DNA of 32,000 nt, taken from assembly GCA_030149205.1 (NCBI GenBank), contig JASBSB010000001.1, positions 210,001-242,000 of the forward strand, given 5' to 3'. This stretch comes from Candidatus Heimdallarchaeota archaeon (GTDB lineage Archaea > Asgardarchaeota > Heimdallarchaeia > Heimdallarchaeales > Kariarchaeaceae). The notes under the pieces were generated by a model. The model was not told the DNA's origin. It saw only the letters and a program-made list of their open reading frames with translations, and made no database searches. Shown one piece after another: positions 1-25,959 of the stretch (its first letter is position 1; each line of letters starts with the position of its first letter). A program made the translations under genes and the position numbers.

Positions 1-1092
1 TTCCCCTACTCTAGTTGGATCCTCTGCTGAGGTAATTATAGATTCCCCAAGAGCATAATAGGCAGCAGATTGATTGGCATCTCTAAGCCTTCCAATTGGT
101 GGAAGTTCTGGTCTCCTGGTATTGTACAAAACGAAATCAACACTTGGAAGGTCAATTGTCTCTCCTGTTCCGCGTACACTCTCTCTGGAAATGATAGCCC
201 TTGTATTTGCTGCGATGGAGAAGTTTTTCCAATCTACTTTTCCAGTGCTGGGGTCAGCATAAACGTTTTCCATAACATTTCCAGGTTTGGTGGTAGCTGT
301 TGTTAGCTGTTCGTGCTCTGGAAATGAATCACATTTTACATAAAATCCTTTCTCAGTTCCAAACCCATTACCCTCCTTGTCAAGAAGTGTAATGTCATCC
401 TGAAGTATCACCACTTTTTCAGGATCCTTAAGGTTGTGGTCATGACAAGTCAGGGTTGTTTTACCTGTCCCTGATAATCCGAAAATCAACATTCCTTTTT
501 CATTCAATTTTCCATCTGATTCTTTTAATTTGAAATATTTCGAACCTGCATGCAATCCCAACCCTTGTTGTTCTGTCCTCATGATTTCCATTGCCATTCT
601 GAGAATGCTCATCTTAGCCTCACCATAATAATCAATTCCCAACACATAAGTGATTCTTTCAATTGGATCTAGGATCACCTTTACCTCTGGATATTGTGGA
701 ACATACAGAGTCATGATATCTGGGTTTTCATGGAGTTTATCACTGGTAAAGAAGTTTATATCATTCATGAGTGGGATGTTTGGGTTTTTCTTATAGACGG
801 CAATGGTAGCCTTCATTCGAATCTTAGGGTTTTGACCAACAAATAGATTCATGACAATGAAGTCTTCTGGCTTGATCATCCCATAGACCTTATCTATGAC
901 CTTTTGGTTTTCCTCATTTAACAGAGAGGTAAATTTTGCAGATCTAGCTGAAATCTTTGAATGAAATAGAGGATTTCCAAATTCATTTTTGATTGATTGA
1001 GGTTGTGCCCATTCTTGGAGTTGCCTCCTTTTTGGTGAAACCTGTTCTTGTGGTATCTTTTGAACAAATTCTAGAAAGCGGCTTTTGTTCAT
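1..1092 (-). CDS. pckA: Phosphoenolpyruvate carboxykinase (ATP), 3'-truncated by the window edge
   Basis: Not in the ORF track. My translation from ATG at 1092 (in-frame TGA just upstream at 1108-1110) reads MNKSRFLEFVQKIPQE... and stays open to base 1. It contains YYGEAKMSILR, GLHAGSK, the P-loop FGLSGTGKTTL (GLSGTGKT at 457-480), ILQDD and GTEKGFYVK, typical of ATP-dependent PEPCK. Confidence 0.9.
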   Translation of the reverse strand, partial: MNKSRFLEFVQKIPQEQVSPKRRQLQEWAQPQSIKNEFGNPLFHSKISARSAKFTSLLNEENQKVIDKVYGMIKPEDFIVMNLFVGQNPKIRMKATIAVYKKNPNIPLMNDINFFTSDKLHENPDIMTLYVPQYPEVKVILDPIERITYVLGIDYYGEAKMSILRMAMEIMRTEQQGLGLHAGSKYFKLKESDGKLNEKGMLIFGLSGTGKTTLTCHDHNLKDPEKVVILQDDITLLDKEGNGFGTEKGFYVKCDSFPEHEQLTTATTKPGNVMENVYADPSTGKVDWKNFSIAANTRAIISRESVRGTGETIDLPSVDFVLYNTRRPELPPIGRLRDANQSAAYYALGESIITSAEDPTRVGE

Positions 1093-21179: not shown

Positions 21180-21965
21180 TTAAGGTAATCCAAATAATTT
21201 TAACAAACCATAAGGGTTTCCAAAGATTAGAATGAATAATCCTTGGATTAATGTCAACAAAGATACAAAAAAGACGAAGTATCCCCATCCAATCATGAAG
21301 TGTAAGACATCCATTAACCCGTCAACCAAATAACCCAATAAGAATAGAAGAAATACCAGAGAACCCATAATTAATGCAAATCCTGCGACAATGAAAATAG
21401 GAATATCTTGAGTACCACCTAAATTGGATCGTTGAAACCAGACCATTATTAATACAACCATCGACAGAATGATTACAGCCCAACCTAAGATGTGGAGATA
21501 AGTATCTGTAACATGTTCAAAAAAGTAACTTATTGCAAATAGTATAATTAATAACACCCCCGCTCCAAGAACCACATATTCTACAGGGAAACCTATCCCA
21601 ATAGGGTTTTTGACTTTTAAAAACCAAGTCAAATAAACCAAAGCCATAAATAGCATTGTAACAAGTGTAAAACTCTTTGGACGCTTCTCTAAAGGTCTGG
21701 AGACCAGAGCGAACCCGTTTACCAACAAAAGAATTAAAGTATAGTTAACATAAGAATTTGATGTATCAACAAATTCTATCAATACAATTGGAAGAAAAAA
21801 TGTTAATATTCCAAAAATGAACGAAGTCCACCTTATTATTTCTAGTTCAATTTCTCTTTTGATAAATATCCTGTCTATTCCAAAAATTACACCAATTATA
21901 CCTGTTAATATCATAAAATACGGGTAGAATGTAATAATTATGTTACTTATAACAGTCGTTACCAT
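21180..21965 (-). CDS. Uncharacterised multi-pass membrane protein (paralogue A, with internal duplication)
   Basis: Colinear with 22048..22638 over aa 1-162 (GIDR 29-32, SRP 89-91, W114, P127, Y147, D154, GW161-162), with an extra 65-aa segment. Confidence 0.75.
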   Translation of the reverse strand: MVTTVISNIIITFYPYFMILTGIIGVIFGIDRIFIKREIELEIIRWTSFIFGILTFFLPIVLIEFVDTSNSYVNYTLILLLVNGFALVSRPLEKRPKSFTLVTMLFMALVYLTWFLKVKNPIGIGFPVEYVVLGAGVLLIILFAISYFFEHVTDTYLHILGWAVIILSMVVLIMVWFQRSNLGGTQDIPIFIVAGFALIMGSLVFLLFLLGYLVDGLMDVLHFMIGWGYFVFFVSLLTLIQGLFILIFGNPYGLLKLFGLP

Positions 21966-22791: not shown

Positions 22792-23748
22792 GTGTGTTAT
22801 ACCAGAAGGAGTCTGTTGAACAAGCAGGTTTTAATTACTGGTAGCTCAGGGCAAATTAGCTCAGAACTTATCCCCGAGTTAACCGCAAGAGGATATTCAA
22901 TCATAGCAACTGATGTTAAACTTCCAAAAACAGAATTCGAGTATGAGGTTTTCGAAATCTTGGATGTAAGGCAAAAGAAGGAAATGGAAAGATTGGTATC
23001 TAAATATGACATTTCATTAATAATACATAATGCCTCAATTTTATCTGCTAAGGGGGAACAAGACCCGTCACTTGCCTTGGATGTTAACTTTGAGGGGACG
23101 AGAAATGTGTTAGAGGTAGCGAGAGATGCAGAAGTTGAAAAGGTTTTCTCACCCAGCTCGATTGCAGCCTTTGGACCTGAGACCCCAAAGGAAAACACAC
23201 CAAATGATGTAATTACAAGACCTAAAACTATCTACGGTATATCTAAAGTTTTTACTGAATTATTGGGAGAATACTTTTGGGGTAAATATCAATTAGATTT
23301 TAGATGTTTAAGATATCCGGGAATAATCACACCAAATTCTATCCCATCGGGTGGTACAACAGATTGGGCAATAGAAATGTTTTTTGAGGCACTAAATAAT
23401 GGAAACTATCGGTGTTTTGTTAATAAGGATACCCAATTGCCCATGATGTCAATGAGAGATTGTGTTCGGGGCACACTTGAATTCTTAGAGGTTGATTCTA
23501 AGAAATTGACACATAGAACATATAATGTGACAGGAATTAGTTTTACACCGGCTGAACTCTATAATGAAATAAAAACACATTTACCCAGTCTTAAGATTGA
23601 ATATCTTCCAGACTACAGACAGCAGATAGCAGATACTTGGCCTAAGTCAATCGATGATAACTTTGCCAGAAGAGACTGGGGATGGCAAAATTCAGATGAT
23701 TTAAAATCAATTACTAAATGGATGATTGATTCATTAAAGAGTAAGTAA
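22792..23748 (+). CDS. tdh: L-threonine 3-dehydrogenase, SDR / NAD-dependent epimerase type
   Basis: VLITGSSGQI, SSIAAFGP, RPKTIYGISK (YxxxK), DFRCLRYPGII, PSGGTTDWA and RQQIADTWPKSIDD..ARRDWGW, all characteristic of SDR-type TDH. The true start may be TTG 22816. Confidence 0.85.
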   Translation: MCYTRRSLLNKQVLITGSSGQISSELIPELTARGYSIIATDVKLPKTEFEYEVFEILDVRQKKEMERLVSKYDISLIIHNASILSAKGEQDPSLALDVNFEGTRNVLEVARDAEVEKVFSPSSIAAFGPETPKENTPNDVITRPKTIYGISKVFTELLGEYFWGKYQLDFRCLRYPGIITPNSIPSGGTTDWAIEMFFEALNNGNYRCFVNKDTQLPMMSMRDCVRGTLEFLEVDSKKLTHRTYNVTGISFTPAELYNEIKTHLPSLKIEYLPDYRQQIADTWPKSIDDNFARRDWGWQNSDDLKSITKWMIDSLKSK

Positions 23749-23784: not shown

Positions 23785-25959
23785 TTATCCTTGAGCAATA
23801 ACTTGTGCTTTACGAGAGTCATATCTTCCTGAACCAACAATTGTGTATTTTACATCAATTTCCGCATCTGGAGAAATTCCTTCAAATCTCCAAGACTTCA
23901 AGACCCCTTCCTCAGTTTCGGTTCTATCCTCATGAGTTGCCTGTGGGGTTTCATGTGTCTCTCCGTAGATGTCAAATCCAGTTGGAACTAAGTCTTTGAG
24001 TGTAAAGTTTACTGTCTTGTTGCCGAAATTTGTCCCATGTAAAACTATGTTGAAACCTTTCTGACCTTCGACTCTAGTCCATTGAACCTCTTTGGAAATA
24101 TCCATGGCAATTCTTTCATGAACCACTTCAATACCTTCAATTAGATCCATAGCCTCAGCAGTAACTTTTTGATCAGGGGCAGAGTAGATGAATCCCTCTG
24201 ATTTAACTGCACCTCTTAGTACGGGTGAATCCTTTTCTGGTCTTACAATATGAGTTGGATAACTAATTTCGAATACATCATCTTGCTTAAACCCATGCAC
24301 CAAATCATTGTTTTCAAGGTGTTCGAACTCTACAATTAAATCTCTTTTGGATGAAGTGTCTGTACTGTTTACTCCTGAACCACGAACTTCATATCCAGAA
24401 GAGAGGGTTTGTCCATTGTAATTAACAACCACTTCCTCAGATTTAGGTCCTTCAAATCCAGATGGTATCTCATCTGTAACTGTTACTGCTTCAAGTGGGT
24501 AAGTTCCAACTCCTGTTACTTTGATTACCGTTGGAATTTCAGTTCTAGTATAGGAAGGTACTTTGGTTACTTTATACTCCTTGGATACCGCCAAAGCCAT
24601 GAATTTTAAGTCTTCTTCAGGAACAACAATAGTAGAAGTAGACTCTAAATACATCTCGTGTTGTACTGAGAAATCTAAAAACTGACCGAAGGTAGGAGGA
24701 TCTCCTTCTGGATGATCATATGCGAACTCAAAAGCGAGTTTTTCAGTTGGTTGAATTTCTCTTTCCTGTTCAGTAGCTGTGGTGCCATCCCAATCTAGGA
24801 TAAGGTTTTGGTTACTGATGTCCCCCTCAAACACTTTCAATGTATTTAGGTTATAAGTAAATTCGGAAGTATTCTCTATGTGAACAACACAATCATAAAC
24901 TCCAGGTTCTTCTGACCTCTCAGCTCTTCGGATCCTATGCCTTAGGTTAGATACCCCATCGATACTTTTTGGACTTAATCCTGAGTACAATTTGGGTTCT
25001 TTATATTCAATTTTTAATTTTCCAGCTTTATAGATCTCAACACCTTCTGGGAGAGATCCATTCAAAATTATTTTGAGATTTACTGTATCACCTGGGTTGA
25101 GTTCTTCCAGTTTCAATGTGACTTCTGATCCACTTGTAGAGGCATCACCTTTTTCACATTCAGTATCTACAATTGTTGCATTTTGATTTACTGATTTACT
25201 TATTACTAAATTTTGAAGGCCTGATTCACTTGTATTTGTTATATTAATCTCATTTATGAAATCTACTTCACGACCACCTAGAAAGTTTGGTACAAGTGAA
25301 GACCCTTTTTCATAGTATTTTGAAGTAACTTCTATTGGACTTTCTTCAGTTTCAAACTCATATTCTGAGCTCCATGACTCTTTTGGACCTAAGTCTTCCA
25401 CCTGCATTTTTTGTTCAAGAGCTGTATTCCCTTCTGATACATTTACAGCCCCTATATTATCGAGTTCTAAGTCAATACCATAAATACCATCCCGTGAACC
25501 GTCATTGCTTACAGTTAATTTCCCTTTGGCTTTAGATTTTTCTACGAGCTTTCCATTGCTATCTAAGGTGAATTCTGAGGTTTCATGAACAATAACATTT
25601 AATCCCTTCCCCTCAAATTCTTTATCTAGCTTTTCTTCCTCTTCAGCACTAAGGCTTGTTTCGTAGTCAAATTCTCCAGGTTGAAGAGATGTATCACCTA
25701 TTGTCTTGTCAAACCCTGTCCCAGATGTTCCTCCATGTGTAGAAACAGCAGCAACTGGTGCTGGTTTTGCACTCAAATTTCGGAGACTTTTTTCAGATTC
25801 CCTTCTAACACCTCTATCTGAGTCTTTCGTAAGTTTCTCTAAAGCCGATATTGCCTCAGGGTAGCTTTCAGGAAGATCTCCCAATTCCTGTGCAGCCTGT
25901 TTACGTTCTTTTTTATTATCTGAATTTGCCATATTCAGTAAACTTTGCAGATCTACCAT
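23785..25959 (-). CDS. HEAT repeat + putative mu-homology domain (adaptin medium chain / delta-COP-like) + Ig-like repeat protein
   Basis: aa 3-62 form a HEAT pair (ERKQAAQELG...DSDRGVRRESEKSL). aa 119-335 show an MHD-like strand pattern. aa 455-712 hold two DUF11-like Ig domains (TDEIPSGF, KDLVPTGF). Acidic, with no signal peptide or TM helix. Confidence 0.6.
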   Translation of the reverse strand: MVDLQSLLNMANSDNKKERKQAAQELGDLPESYPEAISALEKLTKDSDRGVRRESEKSLRNLSAKPAPVAAVSTHGGTSGTGFDKTIGDTSLQPGEFDYETSLSAEEEEKLDKEFEGKGLNVIVHETSEFTLDSNGKLVEKSKAKGKLTVSNDGSRDGIYGIDLELDNIGAVNVSEGNTALEQKMQVEDLGPKESWSSEYEFETEESPIEVTSKYYEKGSSLVPNFLGGREVDFINEINITNTSESGLQNLVISKSVNQNATIVDTECEKGDASTSGSEVTLKLEELNPGDTVNLKIILNGSLPEGVEIYKAGKLKIEYKEPKLYSGLSPKSIDGVSNLRHRIRRAERSEEPGVYDCVVHIENTSEFTYNLNTLKVFEGDISNQNLILDWDGTTATEQEREIQPTEKLAFEFAYDHPEGDPPTFGQFLDFSVQHEMYLESTSTIVVPEEDLKFMALAVSKEYKVTKVPSYTRTEIPTVIKVTGVGTYPLEAVTVTDEIPSGFEGPKSEEVVVNYNGQTLSSGYEVRGSGVNSTDTSSKRDLIVEFEHLENNDLVHGFKQDDVFEISYPTHIVRPEKDSPVLRGAVKSEGFIYSAPDQKVTAEAMDLIEGIEVVHERIAMDISKEVQWTRVEGQKGFNIVLHGTNFGNKTVNFTLKDLVPTGFDIYGETHETPQATHEDRTETEEGVLKSWRFEGISPDAEIDVKYTIVGSGRYDSRKAQVIAQG

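Follow-up and report, generated by a model that had tools for sequence, protein, structure and literature searches.

A mu-homology domain joined to HEAT repeats in a protein of Heimdallarchaeia

Does an archaeon encode a relative of the domain with which eukaryotic adaptor complexes read their cargo? The origin of adaptor and coat complexes is a central question of eukaryogenesis, and the mu-homology domain (MHD) is the cargo-reading part of these complexes. The question is raised by a gene in a stretch of 32,000 nucleotides from a Candidatus Heimdallarchaeota archaeon (GenBank assembly GCA_030149205.1, contig JASBSB010000001.1, positions 210,001 to 242,000; hereafter the window), the product of which we call P0001. 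A preliminary description, made from the letters of the window alone, had proposed that P0001 combines HEAT repeats, a mu-homology-like region and immunoglobulin (Ig)-like domains and is a relative of the medium subunits of adaptin and COPI complexes. Here we show that P0001 contains an MHD whose fold is homologous to that of the C-terminal domain in the mu subunits of adaptor protein (AP) complexes, in delta-COP and in the muniscins, and that, by way of its family, the homology extends to sequence. The proposed kinship with medium subunits holds for the MHD; with HEAT repeats standing in place of the longin domain, P0001 is no orthologue of these subunits. We consider it highly probable that P0001 is a soluble cytoplasmic multidomain scaffold composed of a HEAT pair, a flexible acidic linker of ~50 amino acids, a genuine MHD (residues 114–451) and two DUF11-type Ig-like domains.

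A predicted mu-homology fold in an archaeal protein

Nearly all of residues 120–710 of P0001 form strands in the full-length structure model. A Foldseek search against the PDB returned the mu subunits of AP-1 to AP-4, delta-COP and Syp1 at E values of ~1e-9 to 1e-8 over ~230 columns, with template-modelling (TM) scores by target of 0.55–0.64; Ig arrays were also returned. When the full-length model was re-aligned with VIA-align, the top 50 rows were MHDs throughout. AP-2 mu2 (7ofp_A) superposes on P0001 with a Z score of 18.6 and a root-mean-square deviation (rmsd) of 3.9 Å over 230 of 261 residues, and the whole mu2 domain is covered (mu2 167..435 corresponding to model 114..448). As the matching span of the model is 335 residues long and ~230 of these can be aligned to mu2, ~100 residues represent an insertion.

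To this we add a model of residues 110–470, refolded with a 54-sequence alignment taken from an exhaustive HMMER search, which reached a predicted local distance difference test (pLDDT) score of 92.6 and a predicted TM score of 0.83 (pLDDT 91–97 in the insert). In an exhaustive alignment of this domain model to 48,161 PDB representatives, run independently of Foldseek, ranks 1–10 were occupied by MHDs (that is, AP-2, AP-4, AP-3, AP-1, cow and yeast delta-COP, SGIP1 and Syp1) at Z scores of 16.5–13.1, with 212–234 residues aligned within the domain-model range 5..339, whereas single sandwiches attained Z scores of ≤11.3 with ~105–140 residues aligned. Eukaryotic delta-COP and AP-2 mu clusters of the ESM Atlas likewise aligned over 227–229 residues (query 4–339). 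The predicted models and the aligned ranges thus describe a two-subdomain fold in which subdomain B is inserted in subdomain A, and the chain both starts and ends in A; the mu-homology reading first put forward is borne out in that the structure model spans a complete two-subdomain MHD and not only tandem independent Ig domains. The extra beta-sandwich anticipated at residues ~336–431, before the closing strand, also proved to be real: residues ~338–432, a part specific to the family, remain unaligned in the MHD superpositions, and conserved columns within them include P352, D356–C357, N363-x-S-E-F and an invariant P422. The two DUF11-like domains expected after the MHD are supported by a TIGR01451 match at residues 479–503 and by DUF11/DUF7507 matches at the same place in relatives.

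The sequence evidence comes from the family. A profile of the 54 sequences gave 27 matches when searched against all PDB sequences, 26 of which are AP mu1, mu2 or mu3 or delta-COP (best E value 0.003). In a Pfam scan of the 54 relatives, Adap_comp_sub (PF00928) was matched in 29 (best E value 4.3e-11), muHD in 4 and DUF11 in 42, so that the expected MHD profile matches do exist at the level of the family. In one of these relatives, P0020, Adap_comp_sub scores 40.9 bits against a curated cut-off of 31.6 and is matched over profile positions 12–236; P0020 in turn matches P0001 at an E value of 3e-38 over residues 120–720. HMMER reproduces two of the three alignments to eukaryotic MHDs that the preliminary description had proposed. 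With the family profile searched against PDB sequences, the opening strands align to those of mu1 and delta-COP, and subdomain B together with the '...SG..V..L' return strand aligns to 'ISVKFEIPYFTTSGIQVRYL' of mu1/mu3, the subdomain B of mu1 and mu3 being matched to family-profile positions 119–225.

Residues 237–299 of P0001 are themselves matched by Pfam DUF11 (29.7 bits). Given that Adap_comp_sub and DUF11 matches overlap on subdomain B in relatives (residues 237–344 of P0014, 108–325 of P0020 and 250–360 of P0025), the profile matches suggest that subdomain B of the MHD is a nested DUF11-type domain. If this is true, subdomain B connects the MHD with an Ig repeat that is widespread in prokaryotes, and the overlap of the two Pfam families would be the sequence bridge between that repeat and the eukaryotic MHD.

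The features of the gene and its surroundings are collected in Table 1. The first reading of the gene was confirmed in every respect, including its open reading frame (ORF), the HEAT pair, the linker, ~600 amino acids of beta domains, the acidic composition and the lack of a signal peptide or transmembrane helix, and all the peptide strings that it cited were found at the residues given. Six full-length homologues (35–54% identity) can be aligned to P0001 from residue 1, which indicates that its start codon is correct. The closest full-length homologues come from Candidatus Heimdallarchaeota metagenome-assembled genomes (MAGs), with one from Kariarchaeota, and a locus search with the alignment designated A1 returned Heimdall- and Kariarchaeota MAGs only. 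The host genome comprises 3.3 megabases in 12 contigs and is 93.5% complete, and the G+C content of the window is ~35%. P0001 is acidic (isoelectric point (pI) 4.63; 130 Asp and Glu versus 74 Lys and Arg residues), and it lacks any hydrophobic 19-mer, as do nearly all of the 150 relatives scanned; its sequence predicts a soluble protein with neither a signal peptide nor a transmembrane helix.

At the N terminus, Pfam HEAT_2 is matched at residues 5–63 with 28.1 bits (cut-off 27.7), and an AlphaFold model built from seven sequences places helices at residues 4–11, 16–27, 34–43 and 49–63 (pLDDT 77–92); in the relatives P0014 and P0016, HEAT_2 scores 55–57 bits. The linker that follows is of low confidence in the model (pLDDT <50 at residues 69–117) and strongly acidic (pI 4.1 for residues 66–113). 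It carries an acidic-aromatic motif, G-T-x-F-D-D/K-x-x-G-D-x-x-L-x-x-G-E-x-D-x-E-S/T, which is conserved in alignment A1 and is confined to the close HEAT-MHD subfamily and to P0013, a relative that lacks the HEAT part. In character it recalls the acidic-aromatic ligands that bind to appendage domains and muHDs in eukaryotes, and it may function as a short linear motif.

Table 1 Features of the HEAT-MHD gene and neighbouring genes in the window
Feature	Residues or length	Position in window	Strand	Basis
HEAT-MHD gene (P0001)	724 amino acids + stop	23785..25959	-	ORF list and translation, ATG start; full-length homologues in Heimdallarchaeota MAGs
HEAT pair with four helices	1–65	25765..25959	-	Pfam HEAT_2 and model helices
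Disordered acidic linker	66–113	25621..25764	-	Low pLDDT, pI and subfamily motif
MHD	114–451	24607..25620	-	AP-2 mu2 superposition, domain model, PDB searches
MHD subdomain A	Opening ~114–228, return strand ~325–337, closing strands ~433–451			Domain model
MHD subdomain B, nested (putative DUF11 type)	~229–324	24988..25275	-	DUF11 match and HMMER alignment to mu1/mu3
Extra beta-sandwich	~338–432	24664..24948	-	Outside all MHD superpositions; conserved columns
Two DUF11-type Ig-like domains	452–724	23788..24606	-	Strands throughout, pLDDT 70–90
Helix–hairpin–helix (HhH) protein, N-terminal beta domain and four HhH units	470 amino acids	26123..27535	+	Pfam HHH_5, four stretches
Five-transmembrane (5-TM) protein	196 amino acids	22048..22638	-	Hydrophobic segments; tblastn and clustering across 7 loci
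Multi-transmembrane tandem paralogue of the 5-TM protein	8 hydrophobic segments	21180–21965	-
NAD-dependent epimerase gene		22792–23748	+

Distribution of the family

The Asgard MHD family as such is already known, having been listed among the candidate eukaryotic-signature proteins of 2023: Eme et al. 2023 (Nature 618:992, PMC10307638) gave 44 Adap_comp_sub candidates in their Table S3 and described them as 'sparsely distributed' in Asgard archaea, and Koestlbacher et al. 2026 (PMC12962969) still describe Asgard adaptor homologues as patchy. P0001 is a divergent, HEAT-fused member of this family that the Pfam model misses. The first candidate of Table S3 (from Jordarchaeia) bears the family motifs RIWN and WEC..F.NTSEF, and the motifs of the P0001 subfamily (LKFMA, PGVYDC and GVRKEA) are absent from that table; judged by these three motifs, the HEAT-fused subfamily of Heimdallarchaeia would seem not to be in the 2023 list. 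The HEAT-fused form was found in Heimdallarchaeia and in one Thorarchaeota protein named 'HEAT repeat domain-containing'.

At E values of ≤1e-10, 115 relatives align with P0001 over residues ~115–720, and more than 100 cluster representatives retain this module of ~600 amino acids (that is, MHD, insert and two DUF11 domains) as a single unit, with N termini that vary from none to HEAT repeats, proline-rich tracts or coiled coils; a fusion to NACHT also occurs. Named members belong to Thor-, Heimdall-, Borr-, Jord- and Loki/Promethearchaeota, and family members in AFDB and the ESM Atlas superpose on the domain model with TM scores of 0.78–0.82 over ~340 residues. The close homologues are cytoplasmic (no hydrophobic segment in nearly all relatives) and not secreted bacterial proteins, a possibility that had been named as one that would speak against the MHD assignment.

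Some members differ conspicuously in their additional parts. P0043/P0160 (1322 amino acids, Candidatus Borrarchaeum) joins the MHD module to a C-terminal NACHT nucleoside triphosphatase domain. The paralogues P0068, P0071 and P0097 have long polyproline N termini made of PPxPPG repeats, to which Asgard profilins could bind.

We then surveyed 400 genomes of the Asgard phylum with the family profile, counting a match at an E value of ≤1e-5. The module is present in 355 of them (~346 at E values of ≤1e-19), in 81 of 85 genera and in 78 of the 90 high-quality genomes. Many Loki-type genomes encode 3–7 MHD copies, and the host genome encodes one. Because the family profile matches so many genomes, the 'sparse' Asgard pattern is mostly a sensitivity limit of the Pfam model. 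In one genus of the same order (g12), matches were obtained in only 14 of 25 genomes, several of them weak, partial and DUF11-type; this gap may reflect a lineage-specific loss of the family.

That the family reaches beyond Asgard archaea is suggested by structure. Profile searches for longer and similar-length homologues yielded few extra members and no non-Asgard names. Structural comparison recovered ESM Atlas clusters that share the MHD-plus-insert fold (TM scores 0.81–0.82 over ~335 residues), as well as A0A075HVV2 in AFDB, and these Atlas clusters are labelled mostly Thermoplasmatota, with few of their members labelled at all. The MHD family may therefore extend to Marine Group II archaea, and if the Thermoplasmatota labels are confirmed, it is not limited to Asgard archaea and eukaryotes. 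What is new here is the distribution across 355 of 400 genomes, the HEAT-fused subfamily outside the 2023 list and the conserved HhH neighbour of this subfamily.

Neighbouring genes and competing explanations

The neighbourhood was compared across 28 MHD loci from genomes that are kin; 11 of these loci, sampled from three families of the class, have the HEAT form. The HhH gene adjoins the HEAT-MHD gene in 10 of these 11 loci and in none of the 17 other MHD loci; the two genes are divergent here and co-directional, with the HhH gene upstream, in L032 and L033, from another family of the class. The beta domain of the HhH protein (residues ~30–130), which belongs to no assigned family, has conserved D55, R61, G84 and W86. 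Given that the sampled genomes are kin, we treat the adjacency as a lead and not as proof. A complex prediction for full-length P0001 and residues 1–270 of the HhH neighbour scored 0.00 with controls not run, which gives no verdict in either direction. Only close relatives (7 of 28 loci) have the 5-TM gene immediately downstream of the MHD gene, and in the host locus an epimerase gene stands between the two; the 5-TM protein and its eight-segment paralogue gave only a weak match to the 7TMR-DISM family. An antisense ORF of 133 amino acids within the epimerase gene (22797–23198, minus strand) is most likely spurious.

By analogy with eukaryotic MHDs, P0001 would most likely serve as a peptide- or partner-binding platform. 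As in eukaryotic MHDs, the beta-sheet surfaces of the MHD-plus-Ig part would bind partner proteins or short peptide motifs, and a second or self-regulating binding site would be provided by the tethered HEAT pair together with the acidic-aromatic motif conserved in the linker. The partners may be membrane proteins (that is, in trafficking) or the neighbouring HhH protein. P0001 probably does not read YxxPhi signals or phosphatidylinositol bisphosphate (PIP2) in the manner of mu2, given that the column weakly aligned with the pocket Asp is variable, the MHD is acidic, a longin domain is lacking and the genome encodes no recognisable sigma/mu longin.

Several observations weigh against the interpretation of P0001 as a soluble MHD scaffold. 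P0001 itself has no PF00928 or muHD (PF10291) match at E values of ≤10 and is matched only by DUF11 and HEAT_2; a six-frame search of the host genome gave no match to either MHD family, a single-sequence search of P0001 against PDB sequences gave none, and NCBIfam returned only DUF11-type matches below threshold. As P0001 has no direct PF00928 match, its sequence link to MHDs is transitive. Both structures of P0001 are template-free predictions. P0001 has no longin domain, the pI of its MHD is 4.5, unlike that of PIP2-binding mu2, and the column under the YxxPhi-binding Asp of mu is variable (Ile123 in P0001), in an alignment that is weak. Medium subunits assemble with a pair of large HEAT-solenoid subunits and with a sigma subunit; a Pfam search of the host genome, at its completeness of 93.5%, found no Clat_adaptor_s (PF01217) and a single sub-threshold Adaptin_N (PF01602) match of 17 bits, and similar sub-threshold matches occur in non-Asgard control genomes. 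The conserved neighbour contains HhH domains, which are usually associated with nucleic acids and not with membranes. One relative, P0019 (4745 amino acids, Heimdallarchaeota), has SBBP repeats, an N-terminal hydrophobic segment and the MHD-plus-insert at residues 4016–4375; from its sequence it resembles a giant surface protein, and the module may thus not be strictly cytoplasmic.

These points bear differently on the alternatives. That P0001 is no relative of MHDs, but an ordinary DUF11/CARDB-type Ig array with a convergent or artefactual resemblance, would agree with the finding that DUF11 is the only Pfam family in its beta region, with the DUF11 matches that 42 of the 54 relatives show at the place equated with subdomain B and with the integrin and pilin Ig arrays that also score in Foldseek. 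We regard this explanation as extremely improbable: MHDs outscore every single sandwich by ≥5 Z units in the exhaustive alignment, at nearly twice the aligned length and with end-to-end coverage, PF00928 in relatives takes in subdomain A as well, the family profile matches almost exclusively MHDs in the PDB, and P0001 has no signal peptide.

The remaining alternatives accept a true MHD homologue and differ in what it does. It might act in an archaeal adaptor for vesicle or membrane trafficking, with the MHD bound to cytoplasmic membrane-protein tails and the HEAT pair docked onto a solenoid, GTPase or longin protein, in a prefiguration of AP and COPI complexes. The fold shared with cargo-binding MHDs, the position of the host in Heimdallarchaeia (the class closest to eukaryotes according to Eme et al. 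2023, PMC10307638) and the 5-TM gene directly downstream in close relatives fit such a role, which nevertheless seems to us a tentative possibility and on the whole rather unlikely, for Pfam recognises no sigma/mu longin or Adaptin_N partner in the host genome, the MHD is acidic and the position weakly aligned with the tyrosine-pocket Asp is not conserved, the 5-TM neighbour is restricted to 7 of 28 loci among close relatives, and the HEAT pair belongs to the HEAT_2/PBS type that is frequent in prokaryotes. Alternatively, in a role unrelated to trafficking, the homologue might work with its HhH neighbour, for example in a nucleic-acid scaffold or another soluble complex. The adjacency of the genes in HEAT-MHD loci and nowhere else in the sample, across three families, speaks for such a partnership, as does the persistence of the pair despite a changed relative orientation; yet the association may be inherited synteny among kin genomes, divergent transcription here means that the genes form no operon, and HhH domains are generic, so that we judge this explanation to be unlikely. 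The soluble scaffold with a genuine MHD and binding surfaces for peptides or partners remains the reading that we prefer.

Implications and comparison with known systems

A wider scenario can be envisioned, which we offer as distinctly improbable in its entirety. The archaeal MHD family would be an ancient module present in nearly all Asgard archaea, and possibly in Marine Group II as well; loss of the insert and of the Ig tail would have given rise to the cargo-binding domain of eukaryotes; subdomain B would represent a DUF11-type domain nested in the MHD; and the Heimdallarchaeial HEAT-MHD protein, with its motif-bearing linker between HEAT repeats and MHD, would function as an adaptor in one chain, anticipating the combination of solenoid and MHD in AP and COPI complexes. 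Apart from this scenario, the patchiness of MHDs in Asgard archaea is largely due to the limited sensitivity of the Pfam model, and the fold assignment is of high confidence. The class closest to eukaryotes has a HEAT-fused MHD with a conserved gene neighbour, by which trafficking is not established. The domain construct (residues 110–470), the linker motif and the HhH neighbour can be taken directly to experiments.

Compared with typical DUF11 (PF01345)/CARDB proteins, P0001 resembles them in that its subdomain B and its C-terminal domains match DUF11; typical DUF11 arrays are secreted or surface-bound and consist of independent tandem domains, whereas P0001 has no signal peptide and its first unit is nested in the MHD.

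The likeness to the mu subunits of AP-1 to AP-4 and to delta-COP is an end-to-end two-subdomain fold (Z scores 16–18.6, rmsd 3–4 Å, ~215–230 residues), accompanied by a weak but specific sequence match in the opening strands, subdomain B and the return strand, at an identity of about 11–13%. Unlike these subunits, P0001 adds a sandwich of ~100 amino acids before the closing strands and two C-terminal Ig domains, and its N terminus consists of HEAT repeats and not of a longin domain. In mu2, the Asp176-type residue belongs to the tyrosine pocket for YxxPhi. P0001 has Ile123 under this Asp, in a column that varies among the 54 relatives and in a HMMER alignment that is weak (2.6 bits), and its MHD is acidic where these subunits have a basic surface.

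The muniscins (FCHo1/2, SGIP1 and Syp1; muHD PF10291) and the stonins likewise have a stand-alone MHD, which a long disordered linker separates from an N-terminal domain of another kind; SGIP1 and Syp1 superpose on P0001 with Z scores of 13.3–15.7, and the four muHD matches among relatives belong to the same likeness. P0001 differs from the muniscins in having a HEAT pair where they have an F-BAR domain, in its insert and Ig domains, which are absent from them, and in showing no evidence for DPF-type ligands. The closest known counterparts are the Adap_comp_sub candidates of Eme et al. 2023, which share with P0001 the module of ~600 amino acids (MHD, insert and two DUF11 domains), are alignable over its full length and are in no case fused to a longin domain; P0001, undetected by the Pfam model, is set apart from them by its N-terminal HEAT pair and its linker motif.

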